Positions 2,633-63,203 of a stretch of 64,000 nucleotides of DNA are shown in pieces (position 1 is the stretch's first letter; each line of letters begins with the position of its first letter). The stretch covers positions 5,958 to 69,957 of the forward strand of contig CANRCV010000002.1 of the NCBI GenBank assembly GCA_947629205.1, written 5' to 3'. This stretch comes from an uncultured Bacilli bacterium (lineage in GTDB: Bacteria > Bacillota_I > Bacilli_A > RF39 > UBA660). The notes below the pieces were generated by a model that did not search any database, was not told the origin of the DNA, and saw nothing but the letters and a program-made list of their open reading frames with translations. The translations under genes were made by a program, and so were the position numbers.

Positions 2633-4516
2633 TTGGAAAGAAAATATAAAAAATATTTAGTTATAGTAGGATTATTAATTGTTTTAGGGGCCATTACGGG
2701 AGTTAGTTATTCTTGGTGGACATCTACTGCAGAACAAACAGGAGTAAATCAAATTCAAAGTGATTGTTTAAAAATATCTTATACAGATGAAAACCCTATA
2801 AAATTAGATACAACGTATCCTTTAACAGATAAAGAAGGAGAGGCCTTAACTCCTTATACATTTACTATACAAAATACTTGTTCTAACGCTATAGATTATA
2901 CTATAAATTTAGGTATAAGTGATAGTAATACTTTAAATGATGAATATGTTGCTGTCAAGTTAAATGATAATACCAAAAGAATATTAAATAGTTTAGAAAA
3001 AGCTAATATAAAAAACTATACTAAATCTTATGAACTAGCAAAAGGAATATTAAATGGAAATGATTCAAAAGAATATAGTTTAAGACTATGGATGGATGAA
3101 CATGTAACAGTAAGTGATGATACAACAAATAAAACATTTGGAAGTAAAGTCGTAGTAGAAGCAACATTAAATACACTAGCAAAAGTATATACAGATGATA
3201 CATTAAATGGAGCAGATCCAGTAATAAAAGATAATTTAATACCAGTAAAAATAGATAAAGACAATGGAACAGTAAAAAAAGCAAATATAGAAGAAGAATG
3301 GTATGATTATTCTAAGAAAGAGTGGGCAAATGCTGTTATATTAAAAGACAATGGTACTATAGAAGAAGATGGAACTATCAAAGAAGAGAGTATAGAAAGT
3401 TATTTTGTATGGATACCAAAATATAAATATAAAATCTTTGATATGGGAAATTATGAAACACTTGAAACAGTAGTTGAAGATAAAGGAGCAAATACACCAA
3501 TAGAAATTGAATTTGGAATCTATGATACAGTAGATAACACAATAGAGTGTACTACACCACCAAGTGGTGAAAATGGTTCATGTGCAATAGATAAATGGAT
3601 GACACCATCAGCATTTACTGCATTTGGTACAAACGGATTTTGGGTAGGTAAATTTGAAACTGGATATGATGGAGTAACAAGTGCAACAGAAGCTATGCAA
3701 CACAATGAATTGGCAGCAGAAAAAGTTATTATCAAACCCAATGTATATAGTTGGAGAAACATAACAGTTAAAAATATGTTTGATACAAGTTATGCTTATC
3801 AAAGAGAATTAGATAGTCATATGATGAAGAATACCGAATGGGGTGCAGTAGCATACTTACAACATAGTAAATATGGTAGTGGAGAAAGTGTAAGAATCAA
3901 TAATAATTTTGGATATGTAACAGGCTATGCAGCTTTGAATGAACCAACGATTGGATATACTGGAACAAATGAAAAAGAAAATATATATGAAACCCCAAGC
4001 GGATTAGGGCAAGATGGAACATACACAATAAATTACACAAATCCAAAAAGTAAAGTAGCAAGTACAACAGGAAATTATACAGGCATTTATGATATGTCAG
4101 GTGGAGCTTGGGAATATGTAATGGGAGTAATGAAAGGAACAAATAACATTGACTTTACTTTTGGTCAAAGTGGATTTGATACTGGTTTGTTTCCATTTAA
4201 TAATCAAGAAGGTAGTTCTAAATACTATGATATTTATAAATATGGAGCTGATATGACCAATTGGGGAAGAAGAATACTAGGAGATGCAACAGGAGAGATG
4301 GGACCATTTGGAAATAAAAAATATGGTAATCAAACAAGAACAATTTCTTCTTGGCATGATGATGTTGCATACTTTATTAATAACATTTCTCCTTGGTTTC
4401 TTCGTAGTGGTGCTTCCTATAATGGCATTGATACTGGTGTTTTTGCATACACCTTAACCTCTGGTAGCACAACTGAAACAACGAGTTTCCGTATTGTCCT
4501 TTCTCCACAAAACTAA
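2633..4516 (+). CDS. membrane-anchored protein with C-terminal FGE-sulfatase/SUMF1-like (C-type-lectin fold) domain, paralog P1
   Basis: TTG start; N-terminal TM helix. Motifs KNTEWGAVAYL, GNYTGIYDMSGGAWEYVMG and FRIVLSP resemble the FGE-sulfatase signatures (EWEYAAR / GNVWEWV / GFR). Confidence 0.7.
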   Translation: MERKYKKYLVIVGLLIVLGAITGVSYSWWTSTAEQTGVNQIQSDCLKISYTDENPIKLDTTYPLTDKEGEALTPYTFTIQNTCSNAIDYTINLGISDSNTLNDEYVAVKLNDNTKRILNSLEKANIKNYTKSYELAKGILNGNDSKEYSLRLWMDEHVTVSDDTTNKTFGSKVVVEATLNTLAKVYTDDTLNGADPVIKDNLIPVKIDKDNGTVKKANIEEEWYDYSKKEWANAVILKDNGTIEEDGTIKEESIESYFVWIPKYKYKIFDMGNYETLETVVEDKGANTPIEIEFGIYDTVDNTIECTTPPSGENGSCAIDKWMTPSAFTAFGTNGFWVGKFETGYDGVTSATEAMQHNELAAEKVIIKPNVYSWRNITVKNMFDTSYAYQRELDSHMMKNTEWGAVAYLQHSKYGSGESVRINNNFGYVTGYAALNEPTIGYTGTNEKENIYETPSGLGQDGTYTINYTNPKSKVASTTGNYTGIYDMSGGAWEYVMGVMKGTNNIDFTFGQSGFDTGLFPFNNQEGSSKYYDIYKYGADMTNWGRRILGDATGEMGPFGNKKYGNQTRTISSWHDDVAYFINNISPWFLRSGASYNGIDTGVFAYTLTSGSTTETTSFRIVLSPQN

Positions 4517-4531
4517 AAAAGAGGTGTATAT

Positions 4532-6439
4532 ATGAATTTAGAAGATAAAAATGTAAAGAAAAAAATAATGATTGGTATAGGTATAGCTTTTGTAATATTA
4601 GTGGTAGTAGGAACTAGTTTAGCATTATGGTCATTTAATACCAAACAAACAAGTATAAATGAATTAAATAGTTCATGTTTAAAAATAAGTTTAAAAGATG
4701 AAAATGATGCTATTACTTTAGAAAAAGCTCATCCAATAACAAATGATGAAGGAGAAGCTTTAACACCTTATACATTTACTATTCAAAACACTTGTACAAC
4801 AAGTATTTCCTATAATGTTAATTTAGGAATTACAGAAAATTCAACTCTAAATGCTAAATATATAGCAGTAAAATTAGGGGAAGATGAAAAGAAAATTTTA
4901 AATGCATTTACTCCAGCTACATTAGATAATTATAGTGAAGCATATACACTTAAAACAGGAACATTAAGTGGAAAAGATTCAATTACTTATGATTTAAGAT
5001 TATGGATGGATGAAACCACAGAAGGTGAAGAATCCATGAATAAAACCTTTGAAAGTAAGATAGTAATAAGTGCTAGTTTAAATGAATTAGCAGTACTATA
5101 TAAAGAAGATTTATTAAATGGTGCAGATCCAGTATTAGATGAAGAGGGAAAATTAATTCCTGTTACAATAAGTGAAGATAATGGGAAAGTCACCAAAGCC
5201 GATTTAGATACAGAATGGTATAACTATGAAGATCAAAAGTGGGCGAATGCTGTTATTTTAACTGAAAGTGGGAAAAATAAAAATTATAAAGAATTTGATG
5301 AAATCTTAGAAGAAGATATCGAAAGTTATTTTGTATGGATACCAAAGTATCGATATCAAATATTTGATTTAGGAAAATATACAGATGCAAATGGATCATT
5401 AAATGAGAATGCAGCTCAAACAATAGAAATAGAATTTGGACTTACTGATACACAAGATGATGAAAGTAAAAAAGAATGTGCAACACCAAATAAAAGTGGA
5501 GCAGATGGACAATGTGATGTAGGTGATTGGATGACGCATCCAGCCTTCACAGCGTTTGAAGGTTCAAAAGGAATGTGGGTAGGTAAATTTGAAACGGGAT
5601 ATGATGGAGCAACAAGTACAACAGAAGCTGAGCAACATAATGAAATAGCAGAAGATAAAGTAATTATAAAGCCCAATGCATATAGTTGGACAAACATAAC
5701 AATAAAAAATATGTTTGATACAAGTTATGCTTATCAAAGAGAATTAGATAGCCATATGATGAAGAATACAGAATGGGGAGCAGTAGCTTACCTGCAACAT
5801 AGTAAATATGGTAGTGGTGAAAGTGTAAGAATTAATAATAATGGGAACTGTGTAACAGGGTATGCTGCGAAAACTGAACCAACTGTTGGATTTACTTCAT
5901 ATACCGACTATGAAAGACCAAGTGAATTAGGAAAAGACGGAACAAATACAGTAAACTATACAAATCCAGAAAGTAGGGTAGCAAGTACAACTGGAAATTA
6001 CACTGGAGTATACGATATGTCTGGTGGTTGTTGGGAATATGTCATGGGTGTAATAAAAGGATCAAATGGTAGTGGATTTACATTCGGTTCAAGTGGATTT
6101 AGTACCACAACTTTTCCTTTTAAAACTGGAGAAGAAAAATCACAATATTATGATGTTTATGATTATGGTACAAGTGAAGGAACTTACAATCGAAGAATTT
6201 TAGGAGATGCCATAGGAGAGATGGGTCCATTTGGACGAAAGATTTTCGGTTCTCAATCGAGAAGACTCACCTCTTGGTATGACGATGAGGCCTGGTTTGC
6301 TTATTCTACCTACCCTTGGTTCACTCGTGGTGGCGATTTCAACCTTGGTTCTGGCTCTGGTGTCTTTAACTTCCGTCGTCTCAATGGAGGAGTGAACGTC
6401 GGCCATGGTTTCCGTATCGTTCTTGCTCCAACTAAATAA
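4532..6439 (+). CDS. FGE-sulfatase-like domain membrane-anchored protein, paralog P2
   Basis: Same architecture as P1 (TM, N-domain CLKISL…, central YFVWIPKYRYQIFD block, C-terminal GNYTGVYDMSGGCWEYVMG…GFRIVLAP); RBS AGAGGTG. Confidence 0.7.
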   Translation: MNLEDKNVKKKIMIGIGIAFVILVVVGTSLALWSFNTKQTSINELNSSCLKISLKDENDAITLEKAHPITNDEGEALTPYTFTIQNTCTTSISYNVNLGITENSTLNAKYIAVKLGEDEKKILNAFTPATLDNYSEAYTLKTGTLSGKDSITYDLRLWMDETTEGEESMNKTFESKIVISASLNELAVLYKEDLLNGADPVLDEEGKLIPVTISEDNGKVTKADLDTEWYNYEDQKWANAVILTESGKNKNYKEFDEILEEDIESYFVWIPKYRYQIFDLGKYTDANGSLNENAAQTIEIEFGLTDTQDDESKKECATPNKSGADGQCDVGDWMTHPAFTAFEGSKGMWVGKFETGYDGATSTTEAEQHNEIAEDKVIIKPNAYSWTNITIKNMFDTSYAYQRELDSHMMKNTEWGAVAYLQHSKYGSGESVRINNNGNCVTGYAAKTEPTVGFTSYTDYERPSELGKDGTNTVNYTNPESRVASTTGNYTGVYDMSGGCWEYVMGVIKGSNGSGFTFGSSGFSTTTFPFKTGEEKSQYYDVYDYGTSEGTYNRRILGDAIGEMGPFGRKIFGSQSRRLTSWYDDEAWFAYSTYPWFTRGGDFNLGSGSGVFNFRRLNGGVNVGHGFRIVLAPTK

Positions 6440-6456
6440 AAAAATAGGTGATGTAA

Positions 6457-7920
6457 ATGAAATTACAAAAGTTTATTAAAAATAAAAAGCAAAAACAAAT
6501 TTTAATTGGTGCAATTATAGGAATTATTGTACTAATTGGTGGTATAACTTTATACCGTACTTTTGCTTTGTATAAAGAAGAAAAAACTTTTGATATATTA
6601 CAAGGTCAAGTGCCTGATTTTAGTGGTATTTATAAAGAAAAACTACTAAATGGAGCATATCCAGTATTAGATGAAGAGGGAAAGTTAATACCAGTTATTA
6701 TAGGGAACAATGGAAAAGTAACAAAAGCTAGTCTAAACTCTAAATGGTATAAATATGGAGATAAACAGTGGGCAAATGCAGTGATTTTAAAAGAAGGAGT
6801 AGAAACTCCAGAAGATAATGCAGAAATAGATGAAAGTAACATTGAAAGTTATTTTGTATGGATACCAAAGTATCGATACAAAATCTTTGATTTAGGAGAC
6901 ACTTATACAGGATTAGCTACTGTTCAATCTGGTAAAGCACAACAAATAGAAATAGAATTTGGACTTACTGATACACAAGATGAAAAAGAAAACGAATGTG
7001 TAGCACCAGAAAGTGGATCGAATGGTGAATGTAAAAAAGATTATTGGATGACACATCCAGCATTCACAACATTTGGTACCAATGGTTTTTGGGTAGGTAA
7101 ATTTGAAAGTAGTAATGCTGGTAATAAAGTTCAAATAAAACCAAATGTGGTGAGTTGGAAAAGTATAAATATAAAAACTATGTTTGATACAAGTTATAAT
7201 TATCAAAGAAACTTAGATAGCCATATGTTAAAAAATACGGAATGGGGAGCAGTTGCATATCTATCCCATTCAAAATATGGAACTTGTAATAATAATCAAT
7301 GTACTGAAGTAAGACTTAATAATAATAGTGGTTATGTAACAGGATATGCAGCAAAGACAGAACCAACAACTGGATATAATGCTTACAATAGTTATGAAAA
7401 TAAAACACCAACACAAGATGGAAATAGTACAATAAATTATACGAATTCATTAAGTCAAGTTGCAAGTACAACTGGAAATTACACTGGAGTATATGACATG
7501 AGTGGAGGAGCTTGGGAATATGTGATGGGTGTAATGAAAAATGCAAATAATAATGGTCTATCACTTAGTTCAAGTGGATTTACTTTAAATGATATTCCAT
7601 TTAAAACTGATGAAGAAATAGATTATTCAAAATATTATGATGCTTATGAGTATAGTTCAGTTTACACAACTTATAATAAAAGAATTCTAGGAGACGCAAC
7701 AGGAGAATTAGGACCATTTGAGCAAAAAAGATATAATAATTCAACAAGAATAATTTCCTCTTGGTACGATGATGAATCCTATTATCTTTATAGACCTTGG
7801 GCGGTTCGTGGTGGTGTTTTCTCTTATGGTATTGGTTCAGGGATATTTGCTTTTGATCAAAATGAAGGTGTTGGACTAGAACTTGTAACTTTCCGTGTAG
7901 CTCTTGCTCCAACTAATTAA
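6457..7920 (+). CDS. FGE-sulfatase-like domain membrane-anchored protein, paralog P3 (lacks N-domain of P1/P2)
   Basis: N-terminus MKLQKFIKNKKQKQILIG… shared with P4 and P5; C-terminal GNYTGVYDMSGGAWEYVMG…FRVALAP. Confidence 0.7.
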   Translation: MKLQKFIKNKKQKQILIGAIIGIIVLIGGITLYRTFALYKEEKTFDILQGQVPDFSGIYKEKLLNGAYPVLDEEGKLIPVIIGNNGKVTKASLNSKWYKYGDKQWANAVILKEGVETPEDNAEIDESNIESYFVWIPKYRYKIFDLGDTYTGLATVQSGKAQQIEIEFGLTDTQDEKENECVAPESGSNGECKKDYWMTHPAFTTFGTNGFWVGKFESSNAGNKVQIKPNVVSWKSINIKTMFDTSYNYQRNLDSHMLKNTEWGAVAYLSHSKYGTCNNNQCTEVRLNNNSGYVTGYAAKTEPTTGYNAYNSYENKTPTQDGNSTINYTNSLSQVASTTGNYTGVYDMSGGAWEYVMGVMKNANNNGLSLSSSGFTLNDIPFKTDEEIDYSKYYDAYEYSSVYTTYNKRILGDATGELGPFEQKRYNNSTRIISSWYDDESYYLYRPWAVRGGVFSYGIGSGIFAFDQNEGVGLELVTFRVALAPTN

Positions 7921-7978
7921 AAAGAATTAAGAACAATCTGTTCTTGAAAAAATATATAAACTATAATATAATCAAAAC

Positions 7979-8049
7979 GTAAGTGCTACCAAATTAAATA
8001 GCACTCACATGGTTGTTTGCACTATACCTTTAATAGGTTGGTGCTTTTT
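7979..8049 (+). ncRNA. candidate small RNA, copy 1 (inside 91-nt direct repeat 7967-8057)
   Basis: Promoter TTGAAA(7944-7949)-17 nt-TATAAT(7967-7972). Hairpin gtaagtgcta…tagcactcac. Terminator agcacta-t-acct / aggt-tggtgct followed by TTTTT. Confidence 0.45.
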
Positions 8050-8183
8050 ATATTGATTGAAATAAAACATTATGATAAAAACGCTTTTATAGTTGTAAAT
8101 GAAAAAAACGTTCAAAATGGGTTTATCAAACAATCGTTTTCTCTATTGTAAAGAATAAATAAGAAAAAGGAAGAAAATTGATT

Positions 8184-9017
8184 TTAATTTTCTTCTTTTT
8201 TGATATTTTCAATTTGATTAAGAGTTAAACCAGTATATTTAGTGATTAAATCTATATCTAAATGATCTTCAAGCATCTTTTTAGCTGTTTCTTTTTTTGC
8301 TTTTTGTCTACCTATTTCTTCAAAACCACAATTATCAAGATATTCTTTGTCATAGTATAACCATTGATTTAGAAATGCTTGATAGTTATCAATTTTATCA
8401 TTTACCTTCTTCATCATTTCACTCTCCCCATAAACCTTTTCTCTGGCTTTCTTGTCTTCACATACAAAGATATACAAAAGCCATCGTAAATCCCTTTCAT
8501 TTAACTTTTCAATTTCATTATAATCGATTTCATTTAATAAATCTATATTTATATCAAAGATTTCGATATTTTTGTTACGAATCATATGATATTTTGTATC
8601 CATTATAATACTATGATAGATAAATTCACCTTTGTTAAAGATATCATAGTTATTAAGGTTTATTTGAATAATCGGTTTGATTTTGGGATAGTTTTCTCCG
8701 GGTTTGATTTGAGTTAAATAAAGTTGTGCTATATAACCTGTATTTTTAGTTTGTAACTCTAAACTATTATTATAATTAATCTCAATATTTACAATATGTT
8801 CATTAGTAGAATACACAGCATCTGCTTCTTGCTTCTTTATGCTTTCGTTGATATTGATTTCATCATTTAAAAGTTTTAGATTGTTTACGACATAGTCTTT
8901 TGATAAATCTAAAACAGAAGCAATGATACTTGCAACATACTCCTTACAATCTTCTTCCTTTAATAATTTTTTCGCATACTCATCTTTTAAGAATTTAACT
9001 TCTTTCGTTTTTGTCAT
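8184..9017 (-). CDS. Rpn-family / PD-(D/E)XK nuclease family putative transposase
   Basis: EADAVYSTNEHIVNIEINYNN (D…E.x core), YIAQLYLTQIKPGENYPKIKPIIQINLNNYDIF, C-terminal TGLTLNQIENIKKE helix typical of the family. Confidence 0.6.
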   Translation of the reverse strand: MTKTKEVKFLKDEYAKKLLKEEDCKEYVASIIASVLDLSKDYVVNNLKLLNDEININESIKKQEADAVYSTNEHIVNIEINYNNSLELQTKNTGYIAQLYLTQIKPGENYPKIKPIIQINLNNYDIFNKGEFIYHSIIMDTKYHMIRNKNIEIFDINIDLLNEIDYNEIEKLNERDLRWLLYIFVCEDKKAREKVYGESEMMKKVNDKIDNYQAFLNQWLYYDKEYLDNCGFEEIGRQKAKKETAKKMLEDHLDIDLITKYTGLTLNQIENIKKEEN

Positions 9018-9085
9018 ATACCTGTTCCTTTCAAAAATACCAAAACCTACTTGCTAAAAGTAAAAATATTTACTATAATCAAAAT

Positions 9086-9156
9086 GTAAGTGCTACCAAA
9101 TTAAATAGCACTCACATGGTTGTTAGCACTATACCTTTAATAGGTTGGTGCTTTTT
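9086..9156 (+). ncRNA. candidate small RNA, copy 2 (inside direct repeat 9074-9164); convergent with and overlapping 3' end of the 29-aa ORF
   Basis: Promoter TTGCTA(9051-9056)-17 nt-TATAAT(9074-9079); same two hairpins and T-run as copy 1 (89/91 nt identical). Confidence 0.45.
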
Positions 9157-9244
9157 ATATTGATAGTTGTAAGATTACAATAATCAATAAGATTATAATT
9201 ACTAGAAGAAAATATATTAAAGTTAACATAGATTCTTTTTTCAT
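9155..9244 (-). CDS. 29-aa hydrophobic peptide, type I toxin-like
   Basis: Hand translation MKKESMLTLIYFLLVIIILLIIVILQLSI; GGAGG 8 nt upstream; about 100-nt 5' UTR; not in ORF track (too short). Confidence 0.45.
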   Translation of the reverse strand: MKKESMLTLIYFLLVIIILLIIVILQLSI

Positions 9245-42992: not shown

Positions 42993-44429
42993 ATGTATTT
43001 TTGGGAAAAGCAGTTAGATAAAGAACTTTTGCCAAGTTTGCAACAAGATATATTTGTAGATACTTTAATTATTGGAGGAGGCCTTACTGGTTTAACTACT
43101 CTTTATTATTTACGTCAAGAAAAGAGTATATGTTTAGTAGAAGCTCGTCAAGTTGGCAGTGGTATTACATTAAAAACAACAGGAAAATTAACTTATTTAC
43201 AAAATACCATTTATAGTGATTTAGAAAAAAATATAGATTATACAACAGCACAAAACTATTTACAATCTCAAAGACTTGCTCTTAGTCTTATAAAAGAAAT
43301 CATAGAAAAAGAAAATATTTCTTGTCATTTAGAAAAAGTTCATTCTTATGTATTTACTAATTCTTTAAAAGAAATAAAAAAACTAAAAGCTGAAAAAACT
43401 TTTTTAGAACAAAATAATGTATTAGTAGAAGAAAATACATTTCCTTTAGATATAGAGTATAAAGAATCGATTGGAGTAGAGGATACATATGTTTTTCATC
43501 CCATTGAATTTATTAATCATTTGAAAAAAATAAACAAGAATAAAATTTATGAACAAACAAAAATCATCAAGATAAAACGAAAAAAAGGGATGTATATTTG
43601 TAAAACCGATAAAGGTTTTATAATTAAAGCCAGAAAAGTAATTTTAGCTTGTCATTATCCTTTTTTCTTATTTCCTTTTTTTCTACCTTTAAAATCACAT
43701 ATCGAAAAATCATATTTAATGGTATCTAAAGTTTTAAAAAATCCTAAACTTTCTTGTATTACTGTATCAAATCCTGGATTGTCTATACGGTACTATGAAG
43801 ATAAAACAGGAATTTATGAAATTTGTGTAGGAGGTTCACAAAAAACGAGTGATATACAAAACGAAGAACAGAATTTTAAAGATTTAGAACAACAATTTTC
43901 TTCTAAAAAAAGAATTGTTTGTGAATGGAGTAATCAAGATCTTATTACAAACGATTATCTTCCCTTTATAGGACAAGTGAAAAAAAATATGTATTTAGCA
44001 ACTGGTTATAATACATGGGGAATGACGAATTCTATACTTGCTGCTTATTTAATGAGTAAAAAAATAAAAGAGGGTAAAATGCCTTATGAAGATTTATTTT
44101 CTTTATATCGATGTAATTACTATCAATTAAAAAATAGTTTTAAAACCATTTTTTTCAATCTAAAAGCCTTTTTAAAAAGTAAAAAAATAAACAAAGAATG
44201 GTATCCTTCCACTTTAGTTTTTTCCAAAGATAAAAAAGTAGCTTTCTATAAAGATCAGGAGGGAAATACGCATTCTGTTTATACGACATGTCCTCATTTA
44301 GGATGTAGTCTTTTATTTAATGAAAAAGAAAAAACATGGGATTGTCCTTGTCATAGTTCTCGATTTACACGAGATGGTAAATGGATGGAAGGACCTAGTA
44401 AAAAAGATATCACTTATAAAGTTAAATGA
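42993..44429 (+). CDS. FAD-dependent oxidoreductase with C-terminal Rieske [2Fe-2S] domain
   Basis: IIGGGLTGL dinucleotide motif; CPHLGC…CPCHSSRF Rieske motif. Confidence 0.75.
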   Translation: MYFWEKQLDKELLPSLQQDIFVDTLIIGGGLTGLTTLYYLRQEKSICLVEARQVGSGITLKTTGKLTYLQNTIYSDLEKNIDYTTAQNYLQSQRLALSLIKEIIEKENISCHLEKVHSYVFTNSLKEIKKLKAEKTFLEQNNVLVEENTFPLDIEYKESIGVEDTYVFHPIEFINHLKKINKNKIYEQTKIIKIKRKKGMYICKTDKGFIIKARKVILACHYPFFLFPFFLPLKSHIEKSYLMVSKVLKNPKLSCITVSNPGLSIRYYEDKTGIYEICVGGSQKTSDIQNEEQNFKDLEQQFSSKKRIVCEWSNQDLITNDYLPFIGQVKKNMYLATGYNTWGMTNSILAAYLMSKKIKEGKMPYEDLFSLYRCNYYQLKNSFKTIFFNLKAFLKSKKINKEWYPSTLVFSKDKKVAFYKDQEGNTHSVYTTCPHLGCSLLFNEKEKTWDCPCHSSRFTRDGKWMEGPSKKDITYKVK

Positions 44430-45487
44430 TGCTTTATAATTTCTTGTTCTAATTCTTTAGAATATTCTGCTTTATCTAATACTTGTTTTAAAAAATCATC
44501 CTGTTCAAAGGTATAAAAGGCTTTTTCTAAGTCTTGTTCTGCTAACTTTTTATAATGTAAAAATAGTAAATAAGAATAACAATAAGATGCTAAAACTTGA
44601 GGATTTAGATTTAAACTTTCATCGAGTATCGCTTCATTGATAAAAAAAGAATAATTTTTTTGGTTGATATGTTTAACTAAATCTTCTATTTCAATTTTCT
44701 TTTTCTTTTGATAAAGGGAAATACTGATATTTTGATAGTATAGGATTATAAAATTATTTAAAGCATTTAAAGTAAATTGTTGTTCAGCTATTTCTAATAG
44801 GGAAGAATCAATTCCTTTTTGTTCTTTTAAAAAGAGAGTGGTTAAATATTCATAAAAATATCCCACTAATTCATTTGTATAAGGAAAACGAAAATTTATA
44901 CCATAAATACCATGAGCTAGTTCATGATTTAGACTATATACATCTTCTAAATTTTTCTTTCTTTCTACATAAAAGTAAGCTTGGTGATAAGGAAAAGGAA
45001 AAATAAAAGTACATCCCATAATAGGATTAAAAGTAATTTTTGAAAATTTTAAAAAATGATTTTCTGGTTTTAAATAGTAATCAACTAAAGGTAAATAACT
45101 TTTATTTGGTAACCAAGCAAAAAAATCATGTGTCATTTTGATTAACTGTTTTATAGTAAGAGAAAAATAAGAAAGTTCTTCATATTCTTTCATAGGATCA
45201 AAATCTTTAAGAATAGGTATGGTCTCTAATAGTAAAGAACGGATATTTTTAGGAATTTGAAAATAACTTTTTAAAGTACTTCTTTGTAAAAAGTGATTTC
45301 TATCTACATACAACTCTGGTTTTACAAATGTCATTTTAAATGGATTCATTAAACTTTCCATGTCTTTTGTTGATTGTAAACCTTGATTTATTTTTTGTTT
45401 TTCTTCATATTCATGAAATTGTCTTCTTAATTTTTTATAATATTGTTTTAAAAAAGCAATTTGTTCTATATCCCAATCATATTTCAT
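44414..45487 (-). CDS. putative HEXXH metallopeptidase
   Basis: NHELAHGIYG motif; otherwise unassigned. Confidence 0.45.
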   Translation of the reverse strand: MKYDWDIEQIAFLKQYYKKLRRQFHEYEEKQKINQGLQSTKDMESLMNPFKMTFVKPELYVDRNHFLQRSTLKSYFQIPKNIRSLLLETIPILKDFDPMKEYEELSYFSLTIKQLIKMTHDFFAWLPNKSYLPLVDYYLKPENHFLKFSKITFNPIMGCTFIFPFPYHQAYFYVERKKNLEDVYSLNHELAHGIYGINFRFPYTNELVGYFYEYLTTLFLKEQKGIDSSLLEIAEQQFTLNALNNFIILYYQNISISLYQKKKKIEIEDLVKHINQKNYSFFINEAILDESLNLNPQVLASYCYSYLLFLHYKKLAEQDLEKAFYTFEQDDFLKQVLDKAEYSKELEQEIIKHHLTL

Positions 45488-45574
45488 AATTAATCTTTCC
45501 TTTGTTAAAAATGTATTATACAGAAAGATAAGAAAAATAGCAAATAGTGTGCTATACTTTTAGTAGGTGATTTT

Positions 45575-46438
45575 ATGCTTTTAAGTACGAAATGGAAAGA
45601 TTATGAATGTTTAGATGCAGGAGGAAAAGAAAAATTGGAACGTTTTGGTTCTTATATTTTTAGAAGACCAGAACCTCAAGCTATTTGGAATAAATTCGAA
45701 GATGAAAAATGGCAAAAAGTAGATGGGTACTATCAAAGAAGCAGTGAAGGAGGAGGACATTGGGATTTTTATACGTCTTTACCACCTTTCTGGACGATTT
45801 CTTATGAACATTTAACGTTTAAAGTCTGTCCTACCAATTTTAAACATACAGGTATTTTTCCTGAACAAGCTGCCAATTGGGATTTTATAATGGATAAAAT
45901 AGAACATGCCAATAGAGAAATCAAAGTACTGAATTTATTTGCTTATACTGGATGTGCATCCATGGCTGCAGCCAGTCGTCATGCTAAAGTGGTTCAAGTG
46001 GATGCTTCCCGTGGTATGACTGAATGGGCTAAAGACAATATGAAATTATCTCATTTAGAGAAGGAAGAAATCCATTTTATTGTCGATGATTGTATTAAGT
46101 TTGTTGAAAGAGAAATAAGGCGTGGAAATACATATGATGCTATTATAATGGATCCACCAAGTTACGGAAGAGGACCAAATAAAGAGGTTTGGAAATTTGA
46201 AAATAGTTTATATCATTTAATTGATTTATGTATGAAACTTTTATCCAACAAGCCATTATTTTTCTTAATTAATTCCTATACAACGGGTATTTCTTCTATC
46301 GTGTTAGAAAATATTTTAAAAACAACAATTTTAAAAAAATATCCACATGGTCATATTTGTGCAGGGGAAATAGGACTACCGATTACCAAAGATCATTTAA
46401 TACTCCCTTGTGGAATTTATGGAAGATGGGAAGAATAA
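45575..46438 (+). CDS. class I SAM-dependent methyltransferase (RlmI/Methyltrans_SAM-like)
   Basis: VLNLFAYTGCAS…DASRGM…IIMDPPSYGRG. Confidence 0.65.
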   Translation: MLLSTKWKDYECLDAGGKEKLERFGSYIFRRPEPQAIWNKFEDEKWQKVDGYYQRSSEGGGHWDFYTSLPPFWTISYEHLTFKVCPTNFKHTGIFPEQAANWDFIMDKIEHANREIKVLNLFAYTGCASMAAASRHAKVVQVDASRGMTEWAKDNMKLSHLEKEEIHFIVDDCIKFVEREIRRGNTYDAIIMDPPSYGRGPNKEVWKFENSLYHLIDLCMKLLSNKPLFFLINSYTTGISSIVLENILKTTILKKYPHGHICAGEIGLPITKDHLILPCGIYGRWEE

Positions 46439-46475
46439 AAAAGGGGAAAAAGACATACAATTACTAGGTGATACA

Positions 46476-46964
46476 ATGTCTTATGAAGCAAATCTACTTT
46501 ATCCAGAAATTAAAGTAGAAAAAAAAGATTTAAAGCTAGCAAAAGAGTTATTAGCTTCTTATGCTGGAGAGATTAGTGAAGAAACCGCTGTTCATAATTA
46601 TATATTTCAAATGATGCTTCAATCAAATAAAAAAATAAAAGAAACATTAAAACAAATTGCTATTGTCGAGATGCATCATATTGCTATTTTAGGACAACTG
46701 ATTTTTAAGTTGGGAGTTGTTCCCTATTTTTTAAGTATTAATCATAAAAAAATAGAATGGTTTAGTGGTCACTTTATCAATTATGAAAGAGATTGGAGTG
46801 CTGTAATTAACCAAGATATAAAAGAAGAAATAGAAGCTATTCAAAATTATGAAAAAATAATTCTTCATACGAAGGATCCAAATATAAAAGCCATTTTAAA
46901 ACGGATTATTTTAGATGAAGAAATCCATATTCAACTCTTAAAACAACTAAAAGAAGAAAAATAA
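46476..46964 (+). CDS. ferritin-like / manganese-catalase family (CotJC-like) protein
   Basis: Start at MSYEANLLYPEIKV after the AGGTGA RBS; EMHHIAILG and EEIHIQLL di-metal helices. Confidence 0.5.
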   Translation: MSYEANLLYPEIKVEKKDLKLAKELLASYAGEISEETAVHNYIFQMMLQSNKKIKETLKQIAIVEMHHIAILGQLIFKLGVVPYFLSINHKKIEWFSGHFINYERDWSAVINQDIKEEIEAIQNYEKIILHTKDPNIKAILKRIILDEEIHIQLLKQLKEEK

Positions 46965-47033
46965 AGTACTTTTCTTTTCCTAAATAGAAAAACTCGTGAT
47001 ATAATATCTTTAAGATAGATAGAAGGGGATACA

Positions 47034-48572
47034 ATGGAAAAGTATGATGCCATAATTATTGGAGCAGGAAATGGTGGTTTAATGTCTACCTTAGAGTTAG
47101 CCAAATATGGAAAAAAAGTCTTACTACTAGAAAAAAGTAATAAACCAGGTGGGCTAGCTACGAGTTTTATACGAGGACGTTTTGAATTTGAAGCTTCTTT
47201 ATTTGGACTGAATAACTATGGAAATGAAGAACATCCAGGAGAACTCTACCATTTATTTAAAAAATTAGGTTTACAAGAAAAAGTAGATTTTGTAACGGTT
47301 AAGGAAGCCTATCACGTATATGCAATGGATGAAAATGTTGATTATACAATGCCTTTTGGAATTATGGAATATATGGAAAAAATGGAAGAATATGTTCCAG
47401 GAAGTCAAAATGCCTTAAAAAAATTTTTTGTTTTAGCAGAAGAATCAAAAGAAGCTTTAATCTATATTGAACAAAATAAAAATAAGTTAGATGCTAGTTA
47501 CTTAAAACGTAATTTTCCAGATTTTTTAAAAGTATCAACTCATACGGTAGATAAAGTTTTAGAAGCTATTAAAATGCCTAAAAGAGCGCAAGAAATTTTA
47601 ACATCTTGTTGGGTTTATTTTGGTAGTCCTACAGATAAATTAAGTTTTGTTCACTTTGCTGCTAGTTTCTTTTCTATGATTGCATATGGTTTAAAAATAC
47701 CTTATAAAAAAAGTGGAGAGTTAAGTTTACTTTTAGAAGAAGAAATACGAAAAAATGGTGGAGAAATAAAATATAATTCTATGGTAAAAGAAATTTTATT
47801 TAAAGATCGAAAAATAGCAGGTGTTCATTTAACTAATGGAGAGATTTATGAAACCAATCATCTTATTTGTAATATTTCACCTACTGTTGTGTTTGGTTCT
47901 TTACTACCAGAATCAATGGTACCTATAAATAGTAAAAAACTAGCCAATTCTAGAATTTTAGGAGGAAAAGGGTTTTCAATTTTCTTAGGATTAAATCAAA
48001 GTCCTAAAGATTTAGGATTAGAAAACTATAGTTATATTATTTGTGAAAGCTTAGATTCTCATAAAGAATATTTAAATAAAAGTTCTTTAAAAACATGTAG
48101 TAGTATGGCTTATGTATTAAATAATGCGATTCCATCTTGTTCTGCTAAAGGAACAACGATTTTAGAATTCAATTCTCCTTTAATGCAAGATACTTTTATA
48201 AAAAATGTGACGGAAAAAAATTATTTTGAACTAAAAAGTCGTATAGCAGAATCTATTATTGATGCTTTTGAAAAAACAACAAAAATATCTATTAAACCTT
48301 ATATTGAAGAAATAGAAATTGCTACTCCTATTACATATGCCAGATATACTGGACATCCTGATGGAAGTATTTATGGATACAAGGCAACAGGTATGGATAA
48401 TTTGCTTCCTCGAATGCTTAGTGAAGAAAAAGAAACTTTATTAGAAAACTTACGCTTTTGTGGATCTTTTTCTTCCACTTTAAGTGGATTTGGAGCAACT
48501 TATATGTCTGGACACTTAGCAGCTAAAGGGACTCTAAAAGATATAGAAAAGGAGGAAGAAACATGGAATTAG
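47034..48572 (+). CDS. NAD(P)/FAD-dependent oxidoreductase, phytoene-desaturase (CrtI) family
   Basis: YDAIIIGAGNGGL…LLLEKSNKPGG. Confidence 0.7.
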   Translation: MEKYDAIIIGAGNGGLMSTLELAKYGKKVLLLEKSNKPGGLATSFIRGRFEFEASLFGLNNYGNEEHPGELYHLFKKLGLQEKVDFVTVKEAYHVYAMDENVDYTMPFGIMEYMEKMEEYVPGSQNALKKFFVLAEESKEALIYIEQNKNKLDASYLKRNFPDFLKVSTHTVDKVLEAIKMPKRAQEILTSCWVYFGSPTDKLSFVHFAASFFSMIAYGLKIPYKKSGELSLLLEEEIRKNGGEIKYNSMVKEILFKDRKIAGVHLTNGEIYETNHLICNISPTVVFGSLLPESMVPINSKKLANSRILGGKGFSIFLGLNQSPKDLGLENYSYIICESLDSHKEYLNKSSLKTCSSMAYVLNNAIPSCSAKGTTILEFNSPLMQDTFIKNVTEKNYFELKSRIAESIIDAFEKTTKISIKPYIEEIEIATPITYARYTGHPDGSIYGYKATGMDNLLPRMLSEEKETLLENLRFCGSFSSTLSGFGATYMSGHLAAKGTLKDIEKEEETWN

Positions 48573-49720
48573 ATTTAAAAGGACTTAATAAAGATGCTTT
48601 AAAATTTAAAGAAATAGAAAAAAATAGAGAAAAAATTATTCATGGTTCATCAGCTAATGCTATACCAACGCAATTTAGAGCCAATGAACTTGCTCATTTG
48701 TTTCATCCTCAAAAACAATTTGTAAAAGTTTTAGATATCATAGAAGAAAATAAAAAGACAAAAACGTTTGTGCTTGTTCCAGATATTGATCAAAAAACAA
48801 AAAGACTTGCTTATTTTCAACCAGGTCAATGTATTAGTATTCAAGTATTTATAGAAGATGGTATTTATAAAAGACCATACTCTATTAGTTGTAGTCCTAA
48901 ACAAGTTTTAGATAATAATATGTATACCATTACCATTCAAAGAAAACCAAATGGAATTGTTTCAAACTATTTTCTAGATCATGTAAAAATAGATGATAAA
49001 TTTGAAATTAGTGGTCCATTTGGTGAATTTACGTATGAACCATTAAGAGATGCTAAAAACATCATTGCTATTGTTGGAGAAAGTGGTATTACTCCTATTT
49101 TATCTATGGCAGAAGCCATTTATGATGGCATTTTAAATTGTAAGTTAACTATTCTTTATGGAGTAGAAAAAGAAGAAAATATTTTGTTTTATAAAAGATT
49201 AGAAGAATTAAAAAATAAATGTCATTTTATACAAGTAGAATATTTAGTGAGTGATGAATCAAAATCTTATTATGAACAATTTTCTAAAGATTTAATCGAT
49301 CCTTATTTAGAAAATGAAAACTCCTTTTTTGTAAGTGGACCTCTTGAAATGTATGACTATGTAAATACTTTATTAAAAGATTATCACTTACCTAAAAAAT
49401 ATATTCGTCATGATGCTTTTTTTGGAACCGTTGATATTCGTGGAAATGATTTATATCAAGTAACAGTAGTAATAAAAGAAAAAGAAATAACTATACCATG
49501 TCGTGCTCGTGAAACACTTTTATGTGCTATGGAAAAACATGGTATTACAACCCAAAGTCATTGCCATGTAGGAGAATGTGGTTATTGTCGTAGTAAATTA
49601 ATAGAAGGAACAGTAAAAACGTTTAATGATTCGATTCGAGCTAGTGATAAAGAATTTAAATATATTCATCCTTGTAGTTCTTTTCCTGAAAGTGATGTTA
49701 CAATTGAATTACCTTTTTAA
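48563..49720 (+). CDS. ferredoxin-reductase-type FAD/NAD-binding protein with C-terminal 2Fe-2S ferredoxin domain
   Basis: RPYSIS, GESGITPILS, CHVGECGYCRSKL. Confidence 0.75.
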   Translation: MELDLKGLNKDALKFKEIEKNREKIIHGSSANAIPTQFRANELAHLFHPQKQFVKVLDIIEENKKTKTFVLVPDIDQKTKRLAYFQPGQCISIQVFIEDGIYKRPYSISCSPKQVLDNNMYTITIQRKPNGIVSNYFLDHVKIDDKFEISGPFGEFTYEPLRDAKNIIAIVGESGITPILSMAEAIYDGILNCKLTILYGVEKEENILFYKRLEELKNKCHFIQVEYLVSDESKSYYEQFSKDLIDPYLENENSFFVSGPLEMYDYVNTLLKDYHLPKKYIRHDAFFGTVDIRGNDLYQVTVVIKEKEITIPCRARETLLCAMEKHGITTQSHCHVGECGYCRSKLIEGTVKTFNDSIRASDKEFKYIHPCSSFPESDVTIELPF

Positions 49721-49909: not shown

Positions 49910-50749
49910 TTGGATATACCTAATTTTATGAATGATGCTTTGTTTAAGGTGATTATGACATCTAAGCAAACAAGAGCATTTGCAGTGGAAATCGTGCATG
50001 CTTTAACAGGATTTGATAAAGATTTACTTCGAAAAGCAACATATATTGGTGGAGAAGAAATCAATAAAAAACATTTGCAAGAAAAAAGACAAGCCACTGA
50101 TGTAACCATCACTTTAAATAATGAACAAAAAATTATAGTGGAAATGAATCAATGTGATACAGGTACTATATTTGAAAAAAATGCACTATATTTAATGAGT
50201 CGTATTGTAGAGAATACGAAAAGTGGAAAAAATAGTGTATATCCAAAGTATATCTTAATCAATATTGATAACTTTAATAAATTTGAAACAAAGGAACCAA
50301 TTGTCATATTTCAAGTACGGGATAAAGGAGGAAATGTTGAACACAACATATACACCTCAATCCATTTAATTCTTGAAAATTGTAAAGATAATACTTATAA
50401 TATACCTAAGGAAGTAAAAAAATTCGCAAGACTGATTCATGGGAAAAGAAAGATAGAAAAGTTAGAAAGCGAATATGAAAAAGATACAACCTATAGGGAA
50501 GTGGTAAGGAAGGTGAAAGAATTAAGTATGAATCCAGAATTTTTAGGATATTATGATGTAGAAGAGAAACATAAAGAAGAGATAAAAGATGCAGAGGCAA
50601 CTGGAATAAAAAAAGGTGCACATAATACAGCTATTTCTACAGTTAAGAATTTGCTTAAGTTAAATGTTTTAACAAATGAACAAATAGCGAATTCAACTGG
50701 TTTATCTCTAAACGAAATAAATAAACTAAAAGAAGAAATGCAAAAATAA
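49910..50749 (+). CDS. Rpn-family / PD-(D/E)XK nuclease family putative transposase (second copy; start uncertain)
   Basis: NDALFKVIM N-terminus, ATDVTITLNNEQKIIVEMNQ core, C-terminal TGLSLNEINKLKEE; TTG start or ATG at 49928. Confidence 0.6.
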   Translation: MDIPNFMNDALFKVIMTSKQTRAFAVEIVHALTGFDKDLLRKATYIGGEEINKKHLQEKRQATDVTITLNNEQKIIVEMNQCDTGTIFEKNALYLMSRIVENTKSGKNSVYPKYILINIDNFNKFETKEPIVIFQVRDKGGNVEHNIYTSIHLILENCKDNTYNIPKEVKKFARLIHGKRKIEKLESEYEKDTTYREVVRKVKELSMNPEFLGYYDVEEKHKEEIKDAEATGIKKGAHNTAISTVKNLLKLNVLTNEQIANSTGLSLNEINKLKEEMQK

Positions 50750-50859: not shown

Positions 50860-51300
50860 TTAAATATTTGTTTTAATGATTTTATCAACAGATTCATTAA
50901 ATAGATAAGCAATTTTGCATAGGTTATTTGTAGATATTTTAATTAACCCCTTTTCATATTTGGACAAGCAAGCTTGAGAAACATTTATATTCTTTGCAAG
51001 TTCTTTTTGAGTCACCTTATTTATTTGGCGTAATTTATAAATATTTTTTCCAATAAGAGTGTAGTTGATTTTAGAAATAGACTTGTAATCATCATTTTGT
51101 CTTGTGTTTGTAAGTCCAAATATGTAATCGAAACTAATATTAAAATAATTAATAAAAATATTTAATTTATCAAGAGTCATTATTTTTATATTATTTTCAA
51201 TATTAGCATAATAAGGTCTACTTATTTTTAAAATCTTTGCCATTTTTTCTTGTGAAAGATCTTTATCTTCTCTAATTTCTTTAATTCGATTAAGATTCAT
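50860..51300 (-). CDS. XRE-family regulator with two HTH domains
   Basis: LSQEKMAKILKISRPYYANIEN and VTQKELAKNINVSQACLSKYEKG; divergent from paralog P4. Confidence 0.8.
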   Translation of the reverse strand: MNLNRIKEIREDKDLSQEKMAKILKISRPYYANIENNIKIMTLDKLNIFINYFNISFDYIFGLTNTRQNDDYKSISKINYTLIGKNIYKLRQINKVTQKELAKNINVSQACLSKYEKGLIKISTNNLCKIAYLFNESVDKIIKTNI

Positions 51301-51413
51301 AATTATCACCATAGTTTTATTAAATCATTAATGCTGTTTTTATGCGTTTCTATGTTCCTAATAGTTATATTTTCTTGCAATAAATTAGAAATTATTTTGA
51401 AAAGAGGTATAGC

Positions 51414-52916
51414 ATGAAACTACAAAAATTTATTAAAAATAAGAAACAAAAACAAATTTTAATTGGAACAATTATAGGAATTGTAGTACTTATTGGTGGT
51501 ATTACACTATATCATACTTTTGCTATGTATAAAGAAGAAAAAACTTATAATGTTATAAAAGGAAAAGTACCAGATTTTAGAAATTGTTTAACATTAGGAG
51601 GAGCAACACCAGTTATAAAAGAAGGATTAGTACCAGTAACAATAAGCAATCAAGGAGTAGTTACCAAAGTAAATGAACAATCAAAAGACTGGTATAACTA
51701 TTGTGATAAAGAGTGGGCGAATGCTGTTATCTTAAAAGAAGGAGTAAAAACTCCAGAAGATAATGAAGAAATAAATGAAAATGATATAGAAAGTTATTTT
51801 GTATGGATACCAAAGTATCGATACAAAATATTCAATATGGAAAAATATACAGATGCAAATGGATCATTAAATGAGAATGCAGCTCAAACAATAGAAATAG
51901 AATTTGGAATTACTGATACACAAGATGGAAAAGAAAATGAATGTACAACACCAAATAAAAGTGGAGCAGATGGGAATTGTCATAAAGATTACTGGATGAC
52001 ACATCCAGCATTCACAGCATTTAAAGATTCAAAAGGAATGTGGGTAGGAAAGTTTGAAACGGGATATAAAGATGCAACAAGTACAACAGAAGCCGAACAA
52101 CATAATGAAATAGCAACAAATAAAGTTATTATTAAACCGAATGTGTATAGTTGGAGAAAGATAACAGTAAAAAATATGTTTGACACCAGTTATAATTATC
52201 AAAGAAACTTAGATAGTCATATGATGAAAAATACGGAGTGGGGAGCAGTAGCTTACTTACAACATAGTAAATATGGTAGTGGAGAAAGTGTAAGAATCAA
52301 TAATAATAGTGCATATGTAACTGGATATGCAGCCAAAGAAGAACCTACGACTGGAAGTGGTTCTTACAATAATTATGAAACTCCAACTGGGGGGTTAGGT
52401 ACTGATGGAACATATACAATAAATTACAAAAATCCAGCAAGTCAAGTTGCAAGTACCACAAATAATTATACTGGAATATATGATATGAGTGGTGGATCAT
52501 GGGAATATGTTATGGGAGTAATAAAAGGAGAAAGTGATAGTGGTTATACATTTGGTTCAAGTGGATTTAGTACTAGTACTTTCCCTTTTAAAACTGGAGA
52601 AGAAAAATCACAATATTACGATGTTTATGATTATAATACAAGTGAAACAACTTATAATAGAAGAATTTTAGGGGATGCTACAGGGGAGATGGGGCCATTT
52701 GGGCAAAAACAATATAGTTCACAAACAAGAAATATTTCCTCTTGGTATGATGATGAGGCTTGGTTTGCTGTATCAACTGGCCCTTGGTTCTATCGTGGTG
52801 GACCTTTTAATCGTGGTACGGGCTCTGGTATCTATGCATTAACTCGTCCCACTGGTGGAGTGGATGTCTATGGTGGTTTCCGTATCGTTCTTGCTCCAAC
52901 GAATGAGAACGAGTAA
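51414..52916 (+). CDS. FGE-sulfatase-like domain membrane-anchored protein, paralog P4
   Basis: Same N-terminus as P3/P5, same C-terminal motifs (NNYTGIYDMSGGSWEYVMG…GFRIVLAP). Confidence 0.7.
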   Translation: MKLQKFIKNKKQKQILIGTIIGIVVLIGGITLYHTFAMYKEEKTYNVIKGKVPDFRNCLTLGGATPVIKEGLVPVTISNQGVVTKVNEQSKDWYNYCDKEWANAVILKEGVKTPEDNEEINENDIESYFVWIPKYRYKIFNMEKYTDANGSLNENAAQTIEIEFGITDTQDGKENECTTPNKSGADGNCHKDYWMTHPAFTAFKDSKGMWVGKFETGYKDATSTTEAEQHNEIATNKVIIKPNVYSWRKITVKNMFDTSYNYQRNLDSHMMKNTEWGAVAYLQHSKYGSGESVRINNNSAYVTGYAAKEEPTTGSGSYNNYETPTGGLGTDGTYTINYKNPASQVASTTNNYTGIYDMSGGSWEYVMGVIKGESDSGYTFGSSGFSTSTFPFKTGEEKSQYYDVYDYNTSETTYNRRILGDATGEMGPFGQKQYSSQTRNISSWYDDEAWFAVSTGPWFYRGGPFNRGTGSGIYALTRPTGGVDVYGGFRIVLAPTNENE

Positions 52917-62563: not shown

Positions 62564-62983
62564 ATGAATCAATTTTATATTTTACAACAAGAATTAAGTA
62601 TAGAAAAACACCAAAGATTATTAGAAAAACAATTACAAGATCAACATAAACAACTCTCTATGTTACAAAACAATTGTCAACATATGGAAGTTATTTTAGG
62701 AAAAAGTCATTACGCTTTAGAACCGGTTCGTCGTTGTTTATGGTGTGGCAAAAGAATTCATTTTTTAGCTAACTATATGGTAGATGCTAGTAATATTTTT
62801 AAAGAATATAATTTAGATGATTATGAAGAATGTGCTCAAAAATTTTATCGTATTCAATTATGTGCTTATGAATTATTACAAAAATGTCCTACTTTATCAC
62901 AAGAAGAATTACAAGAACAATTAAATTCCTATTTTAACTTTATAGAACAAGAAGAAAAGAAATTAGCAAAAAAGATGCCTTAA
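62564..62983 (+). CDS. hypothetical protein (139 aa, Cys-containing)
   Basis: ORF with GGTGG RBS directly after pnp. Confidence 0.4.
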   Translation: MNQFYILQQELSIEKHQRLLEKQLQDQHKQLSMLQNNCQHMEVILGKSHYALEPVRRCLWCGKRIHFLANYMVDASNIFKEYNLDDYEECAQKFYRIQLCAYELLQKCPTLSQEELQEQLNSYFNFIEQEEKKLAKKMP

Positions 62984-62996
62984 AAAACATCTTTTT

Positions 62997-63203
62997 TTAT
63001 TTTACTTTTTCAACTATTTTTTTTACTTCATCGGCAATTTCTTTATCACTTAAATTTAAGGCTATAACGATTTTAGCAAAAGTATCCAATAGAGGCATAT
63101 TTAAATTATTTTCAATTCGAAAGATTGTTTTTCGGTCTATGTTGGTTATTTTTTCTAATTGTTCTTGTGACATATTGATTCTTTTTCGATATTCTTTTAA
63201 CAT
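62997..63203 (-). CDS. XRE-family HTH regulator (68 aa)
   Basis: MSQEQLEKITNIDRKTIFRIENN; divergent from paralog P5. Confidence 0.8.
   Translation of the reverse strand: MLKEYRKRINMSQEQLEKITNIDRKTIFRIENNLNMPLLDTFAKIVIALNLSDKEIADEVKKIVEKVK

Follow-up and report, generated by a model that had tools for sequence, protein, structure and literature searches.

Candidate orphaned targets of diversity-generating retroelements among TaqVP-like, probable surface proteins of an uncultured Bacilli bacterium

A stretch of 64,000 nucleotides from the genome of an uncultured Bacilli bacterium (contig CANRCV010000002.1 of assembly GCA_947629205.1), called the window here, carries five related genes, P1 to P5, at three loci. 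We conclude that P1-P5 are probably surface ligand-binding proteins that belong to a family of diversity-generating retroelement (DGR) targets and that have been orphaned, being without a DGR cassette in this window. In relatives, a template repeat (TR) downstream of the gene, an Avd gene and a reverse transcriptase (RT) would rewrite the gene tail by adenine-specific mutagenesis, as is seen at two loci described below. A sequence-only reading of the window had described the genes as a five-member modular family of membrane-anchored proteins with an FGE-sulfatase or C-type-lectin (CLec) fold. It had likened them to a variable surface or receptor-binding system, and that role remains the best reading of P1-P5. 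The genes are as follows.

2633-4516, + strand: P1, 627 aa; N-terminal hydrophobic anchor, beta-sandwich module, TaqVP-like CLec module at about 3200-4513
4532-6439, + strand: P2, 635 aa; helix at residues 6-35, beta-sandwich at residues 50-183 (nt 4679-5080), TaqVP-like module at about 5114-6436
6457-7920, + strand: P3, 487 aa; anchor and TaqVP-like module (6625-7917), without an extra N-terminal module
51414-52916, + strand: P4, 500 aa; anchor and TaqVP-like module (51591-52898)
63313-64000, + strand: P5, ending at the window edge; anchor, two-Cys module of about 70 aa (63481-63696), start of the TaqVP-like module

All five open reading frames (ORFs) lie where they had been placed, and they are indeed paralogs. 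Identity to P1 is 54-61%, 43 columns are invariant in the P1-P5 alignment, and the blocks common to the paralogs were recovered by a repeat finder as DNA repeat families of three to five copies. The family itself is far bigger than five members. An exhaustive search at E <= 1e-3 gave 3,634 clusters (50% identity), of which 660 have E <= 1e-30.

The fold of the conserved module was predicted with AlphaFold from two inputs, full-length P2 with a 42-sequence alignment (model 1) and P3 residues 57-487 with 104 diverse family members (model 2). Model 1 resolved the N-terminal helix, the beta-sandwich and the "central block" of the sequence-only reading; its C-terminal half stayed below pLDDT 50. 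Model 2 reached a pLDDT of 96.6 and a pTM of 0.95. When model 2 was compared with the PDB by Foldseek, the top match was TaqVP of Thermus aquaticus (5vf4; E = 1e-10, probability 1.0), spanning the whole module, followed by Mtd (E = 5e-3), PorK, TvpA (E = 2.5e-2), FGE and EgtB. TaqVP is also the sole significant PDB match by sequence, with P3 aligning to 5vf4 at E = 6e-4 over the KNTEWG and YDMSGG-WEYV motifs. What had been taken for separate modules, a central block and a C-terminal domain, is one structural unit of 430 residues. This unit is predicted to consist of an N-terminal wrap region and a CLec domain of the FGE subtype, which is the layout of TaqVP. The structure prediction therefore bears out the proposed fold.

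By sequence, the FGE-sulfatase signatures are weak. Only P3 matches Pfam PF03781 (E = 0.005; 16.9 bits, under the 23.3-bit cut-off), no match was found for P1, P2, P4 or P5, and 16 of 67 diverse relatives match at E <= 0.01, the best at E = 1.5e-6. These matches, together with the FGE and EgtB hits of model 2 in Foldseek (E = 0.03-0.8), are what would favor enzymes of the FGE, EgtB or SUMF1 type, acting on a secreted or cell-wall substrate. The catalytic residues of such enzymes are a Cu-binding Cys pair in FGE and Fe-binding His residues in EgtB. The window proteins share with FGE and EgtB the fold superfamily and the scaffold motifs, namely (K/P)-(N/T)-x-E-W, G-x-Y-D-M-x-G-x-x-W-E, R-G-G and a terminal F-R, and it is these motifs that make up the invariant columns. 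They differ in falling under the Pfam threshold and in lacking a conserved catalytic Cys pair or iron-binding His residues. No Cys is invariant or near-invariant in the C-terminal third of the alignment, and near-invariant His residues number two overall. The C-terminal region that corresponds to the catalytic-Cys site of FGE, by a residue mapping that was deduced rather than read from an inspected superposition, is hypervariable here and without a conserved Cys or His. Moreover, the nearest structures are non-enzymatic DGR variable proteins, and two homologs are DGR targets. The enzyme reading was rejected on residue conservation, and we consider it very improbable.

TaqVP has its variable repeat (VR) in the last 40 residues and ends in seven invariant residues (bioRxiv 10.1101/432187). 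The window proteins resemble it in the N-terminal wrap, in an FGE-type CLec domain with inserts, in a VR within the last ~45 residues and in an invariant terminal strand. They differ in sequence, with an identity of only 14-16%, and in their N-terminal part, where all have a membrane helix and three of the five add a spacer module. They also occur as five copies in 64 kb with no TR, Avd or RT in the window. Two better-known proteins, Mtd of Bordetella phage BPP-1 and TvpA of Treponema denticola, likewise have a CLec fold of the FGE subtype whose variable ligand-binding surface is C-terminal, and share AAY-coded variable sites with the templates of window-family homologs. Mtd is a trimeric phage tail-fiber tip and TvpA a lipoprotein, whereas the window proteins have a signal-anchor or SipW-like N-terminus and form a multi-copy, chromosomal family with no cassette in the window. 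TaqVP-like DGR variable proteins are a recognized class, and the module belongs to it. The sequence-only reading, which recognized no characterized function for the arrangement, is superseded on this point, also because two homologs adjoin complete cassettes.

These cassettes were found by comparing the last 243 nt of every family gene with its own locus. At locus L040 the gene is followed 200 nt downstream by a 142-nt copy, and all 15 VR/TR mismatches fall at TR adenines, mostly in AAC codons. Downstream of this TR come an Avd-like ORF and a 342-aa RT with a YMDD motif. Locus L013 has the same cassette (141 nt, 12 of 12 mismatches at TR adenines, with Avd and RT), and its target lies ~4.5 kb upstream of rimP-nusA, roughly the place of P4 in the window. 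Between TR and Avd-like gene, both cassettes (9588-11676 in L040 and 9462-11589 in L013) contain an extra conserved ORF of 128-145 aa. The genomes of L040 and L013 also hold sister paralogs, L076 and L034, which mismatch the TR of their own genome at 20-22% of non-variable sites. For this reason, cassette-less paralogs are normal in the family. A further locus, L008, carries a family gene with an N-terminus of the P3-P5 type. Located 180 nt downstream of that gene, at 1863-1994, is a decayed, Asn-rich, TR-like relic of 134 nt that is 77% identical to the gene tail, with 16 of 31 mismatches from A and no RT nearby.

In the window, the 3' ends of four genes look like VRs.

4367-4507, + strand: VR-like tail of P1, homologous to the TRs of L040 and L013; A fraction 0.23
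6290-6430, + strand: VR-like tail of P2; A fraction 0.13, GC 0.51
7777-7911, + strand: VR-like tail of P3, the most decayed; A depleted at four-fold sites
52758-52898, + strand: VR-like tail of P4; A fraction 0.13, GC 0.50

The GC content of the 64-kb window is 28%. Among 97 family genes, entropy at the sites homologous to AAY codons of the TRs is 3.57 bits, against 1.76 bits at other tail sites, and P1-P4 differ from one another at these positions. The tail, the last ~140 nt, is the most divergent segment in every pair, with 53-57% nucleotide identity (74% for P2-P4) against ~70-89% elsewhere. Non-synonymous change affects 40-70% of tail codons and 24-38% of those in the rest of the module.

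Adenine is also scarce at the synonymous sites of the tails. For the last 55 codons and for the rest of each gene, we compared how often four-fold sites carry A, using Fisher's test. The frequency drops from 0.65 to 0.18 in the tail of P1 (p = 3e-6), from 0.58 to 0.09 in P2 (p = 2e-7), from 0.60 to 0.19 in P3 (p = 5e-5) and from 0.63 to 0.18 in P4 (p = 2e-6); the depletion pooled over P1-P4 has p = 8e-22. As a calibration, the proven targets give 0.04 and 0.14, with a median of 0.27 for the family as a whole. The value is 0.55-0.56 in two control blocks taken from the same module, and some family members show no tail depletion at all. A gradient of this kind across the family is the outcome to expect if linkage to a DGR had been lost repeatedly and the tails had then decayed by mutation. 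Where no TR is visible, a shortage of adenine at the synonymous sites of the last ~140 nt offers a simple test of DGR ancestry.

The codons at the TR-AAY sites vary in how well they preserve the pattern. P2 has NNY at 12 of 13 such sites and NNC at 5 of 13, against an NNC background of 5%. P1 and P4 have NNY at 11 of 13 each, the remaining codons being TTA and ACA in P1 and TGG and GTA in P4. NNY is thus enriched at these sites in P1, P2 and P4. It is not enriched in P3 (8 of 12 NNY, no NNC), which contains Q, E and NNA codons that are unobtainable from AAY.

Identity between the copies is a mosaic. The signal regions of P3, P4 and P5 are 89-91% mutually identical, the closest pair over the first part of the module is P1-P5, and over the next segment it is P2-P4, at 89%. 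P2 (6407-6432) and P4 (52875-52900) also have an identical 26-nt 3' end, GGTTTCCGTATCGTTCTTGCTCCAAC, located where the IMH (initiation of mutagenic homing) site of a DGR would lie; 5' of it the two tails diverge. An exact scan of metagenomes with the 23-nt core of this 26-mer returned no match. The mosaic pattern and the common 26-mer suggest recombination between copies.

How might such proteins work? The K-rich N-terminus and single hydrophobic helix would serve as a membrane anchor or as an export signal, leaving the rest of the protein outside the cell, and P1, P2 and P5 would add an optional beta-sandwich spacer after the helix. The conserved 430-residue head is modeled as a TaqVP-like, FGE-subtype CLec fold. 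By homology with TaqVP, Mtd and TvpA, its last ~45 residues would make up a binding site that is exposed to solvent and carried by a rigid scaffold. In the window, binding diversity would be supplied by having several diverged copies, by shuffling their N-terminal modules and by recombining the copies with one another, and each locus would probably be controlled separately by its own divergent XRE or ribbon-helix-helix (RHH) gene.

Any two tails among P1-P4 disagree at 16-37% of their non-variable nucleotides, and for that reason one TR for all of them was ruled out. Because there is no cassette in the 64 kb and no common template, yet the DGR design is kept, in the form of hypervariability at template-AAY positions and synonymous-site adenine avoidance, we read the window copies as recently orphaned variable proteins. 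Several points weigh against this reading. A search of the 64-kb window by repeat finder, blastn, pattern search, nhmmer --max and six-frame HMM found no TR or TR relic. Similarly, jackhmmer searches started from the L040 RT, Avd and 128-aa ORF found no RT or Avd among the window ORFs, with matches in L013 only. Synonymous divergence shows no reduction between the window tails, so these tails appear to have evolved by ordinary mutation as well, for some time, and the persistence of adenine avoidance without a template is only partly explained. The N-terminal helix may be cleaved, which would release the protein rather than anchor it, and the link of the regulators to the family genes is purely positional.

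Alternatively, at least one window copy could still be an active DGR target, with one or more cassettes elsewhere in the genome (RT, Avd and a matching TR) rewriting tails in trans. Remote targets exist for other DGRs. P2 is the copy that fits best, since its adenine value falls between those of the two proven targets, its variable sites are almost all NNY and its 3' end is identical to that of P4 at the IMH position; adenine avoidance has also been kept despite synonymous divergence. Countering this are the lack of any TR, TR relic or RT within the window and the differences among the tails at non-variable nucleotides, which would call for a separate TR for each. Even in the genomes that have a cassette, those of L040 and L013, the sister paralogs mismatch the TR at non-variable sites, and P3, and less so P1, have variable-site codons that AAY cannot yield. 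We regard continued activity as a possibility of some weight, albeit on balance an unlikely one.

More tentatively still, the cassette-less copies could be an archive of binding heads written by DGRs, dispersed and under separate regulation, rather than dead relics, an idea we hold to be rather doubtful. Such an archive may take one of two forms. A remote DGR with several templates may still rewrite the copies, or recombination between DGR-linked and silent copies may spread new tails among loci. The second form fits because of the mosaic identity and the 26-mer common to the 3' ends of P2 and P4, and it would be akin to antigenic variation of the pilE/pilS type, but fed by a retroelement. If there is an archive, the adenine-depletion gradient from 0.04 to 0.6 across the family would record that gut Bacilli with small genomes have repeatedly coupled these genes to DGRs and uncoupled them again. 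Ongoing diversification, or an exchange of tails among the copies, would provide reduced genomes with a route to rapid surface variation.

Under the reading that we favor, of orphaned DGR targets, what is new is the setting, a very large, multi-copy and unnamed family in small-genome gut Bacilli. Also new are the signal-anchor, SipW-like or pilin N-termini, the recurrent dedicated regulators, and a cassette that is mostly absent while the DGR footprint remains measurable.

The size of the family is apparent from several searches. In a word-indexed search, at least 7,974 of 8,000 candidates scored as relatives. Those listed mostly have no precomputed Pfam domain, and one has a source name ("hypothetical protein"). 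Among the matches listed, the module mostly ends at the C-terminus, behind N-terminal parts of widely differing length. A few giant proteins have several copies of the module; P0123 (3713 aa) and P0186 (4516 aa) show 5 and 10 matched module stretches. A collection with one genome per species gave at least 578 matching loci, the best 80 of which come nearly all from metagenome-assembled genomes (MAGs) of uncultured gut "Bacilli", "Tenericutes" or "Erysipelotrichaceae", from rabbit, mouse, chicken and human hosts. One member lies on a single-chromosome MAG of 1.31 Mb. Several MAGs contribute many loci, with at least nine in Lapin-021 bin68, and the genes occur singly or in tandem runs, such as those of L028, with four adjacent copies, and L071, with six. 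The analysis assigns a fold and a probable surface-binding role to this very large unnamed family, which is expanded in uncultured gut Bacilli with small genomes, and shows that the scaffold of DGR targets occurs far more widely than the cassettes themselves.

Against predicted viral structures, model 2 matches phage tail-fiber and SUMF-like proteins (Foldseek E = 5e-9 to 1e-6), as well as tail-collar and crAss-like phage proteins. Mtd is itself a tail-fiber protein of a phage. The window genes could on this basis be prophage tail-fiber remnants, that is, phage receptor-binding proteins left behind. However, phage genes flank none of the three loci, all copies have the N-terminal membrane helix, and the genes sit between core operons, some with the same neighbors in related MAGs. 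A phage origin was rejected because no family member was found in IMG/VR or in INPHARED (GenBank phage records), and we judge it highly unlikely.

The N-terminal modules are swapped among the window copies, as the sequence-only reading had noted, with an extra module of ~150 aa in P1 and P2, a different insert of ~70 aa in P5 and none in P3 and P4. The P1/P2 module was modeled as a beta-sandwich, with a pLDDT of mostly 69-89 over the block at P2 residues 50-183, and Foldseek matched it to generic beta-sandwich or pilin-like structures only. A TasA-like fold was considered for this module and found to be unsupported, as TasA is not among the top 50 Foldseek matches of the P2 model. The P5 insert has no sequence similarity to the P1 module (BLASTP E = 6.7) and is found again in protein P0133. 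In 67 diverse family members Pfam recognizes N-terminal modules of the surface type, which speak for a surface role: Ig-like, fn3, cadherin-like, Laminin_G, CBM and sialidase-N modules, and Listeria-Bacteroides repeats.

Membrane anchoring, another part of the sequence-only reading, is consistent with N-termini that are K-rich and followed by a hydrophobic helix (predicted at residues 6-35 in P2), as would suit an outward-facing anchor. Instead of being permanently anchored, the proteins could be exported subunits or tip adhesins of a fiber or pilus, cut by a SipW-type or prepilin-type peptidase. An [ST]-[FY]-A-x-[FW] motif resembling the TasA and camelysin signals recurs in N-termini across the family. 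TIGR04088, the SipW-type signal, matches 9 of 40 family N-termini at E <= 1 (best E = 7e-4), and P1 of the window weakly (E = 0.25; 11.6 bits). Many N-termini look SipW/TasA-like, although the evidence is weak. The type IV pilin N-methylation motif (N_methyl, PF07963) is present in 16 of 67 diverse members. The N-terminus is of pilin type in the L040 DGR target and the L069 gene, and SipW-like in the L013 target. A G-type pilin domain has been recorded as a rare VR host. In the window, however, the prepilin motif G-F-T-L-x-E was not found in P1-P5, and no window protein reaches the 19-bit cut-off of TIGR04088, which has no match in P2-P5. No SipW or pilus-assembly genes were identified adjoining the loci, and the absence of TasA from the top Foldseek matches counts in the same direction. 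We consider fiber or pilus subunits unlikely.

The pilin-type relatives recall the DGR-diversified pilus adhesins of Bacteroides type V pili (bioRxiv 10.1101/2024.11.15.621889). Both have a variable lectin-fold head on an N-terminal part for surface display, and a type IV pilin N-terminus is present in those 16 of 67 window-family members, the L040 DGR target included. The Bacteroides adhesins belong to another pilus type and another phylum, and the window copies lack the pilin motif.

The three loci are inserted at three places between core operons, as had been claimed. Locus 1 lies between a STAS-sigma gene pair and spoVAC/AD/AE. Locus 2 is just upstream of rimP-nusA-ylxR-infB-rbfA-truB, with P4 immediately 5' of rimP-nusA, and locus 3 comes just after pnp. 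Comparison with related MAGs agrees with this. At the position of locus 1, L066 (from the same MAG as L008) has STAS-sigma-RHH and then one family gene. L021 has STAS-sigma, one unrelated gene and then spoVAC/AD/AE, with neither RHH nor family gene. In L014 a family gene is present at a different point of a block syntenic with window 42993-49720. Because these relatives differ in the presence or site of the family gene, the loci behave as insertions between core operons.

Each locus is headed by a small regulator gene that is divergent from the first family gene.

2348-2509, - strand: small RHH (HicB/CopG-like) gene, divergent from P1; Pfam HicB E = 1e-4, RHH_5 E = 1e-3
50860-51312, - strand: XRE regulator gene with a double helix-turn-helix (HTH), divergent from P4; Pfam HTH_3 E = 3e-24, two stretches
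62997-63203, - strand: XRE regulator gene, divergent from P5; Pfam HTH_3 E = 2e-12

The claim that every locus has its own regulator holds for all three window loci; in relatives such a gene is optional, being present at 9 of 53 loci. Of the 24 XRE-type HTH matches among ~1,000 called genes at all loci, 10 are immediately upstream of and divergent from a family gene, and this association is far above chance. Homologs of the 50860-51312 XRE gene lie upstream of family genes in L048, L075 and L031. A near-identical RHH gene occupies the same place in the syntenic L066, and L021 lacks both RHH and family gene; judging by this synteny, the RHH gene travels with the family gene. An ORF upstream of the family gene in L042 looked RHH-like by eye, had no Pfam match and was not counted.

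Genes adjoining the loci include two Rpn-like PD-(D/E)XK "transposase" genes (PF12784), at 8184-9017 (- strand) beside locus 1 and at 49910-50749 (+ strand) beside locus 2. The former is flanked by direct repeats of 115 nt (7943-8057 and 9050-9164, 90% identical), as if itself inserted. It is conceivable that these genes have a role, as yet putative, in recombination between family copies. Upstream of locus 1, at 1354-2351, the STAS (SpoIIAA-like) gene is followed directly by the sigma-factor gene; a gene for an anti-sigma kinase of the SpoIIAB type is missing between the two, and two related MAGs have the same arrangement (L066 6042-7042 and L021 11432-12512). A 139-aa ORF without a Pfam match lies at 62564-62983, between pnp and the XRE gene of locus 3. 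Finally, just upstream of locus 1, at 107-1140, an AAA_21 ATPase fragment is accompanied by an RloB-like gene, a combination that typifies defense by abortive infection or of the OLD type.

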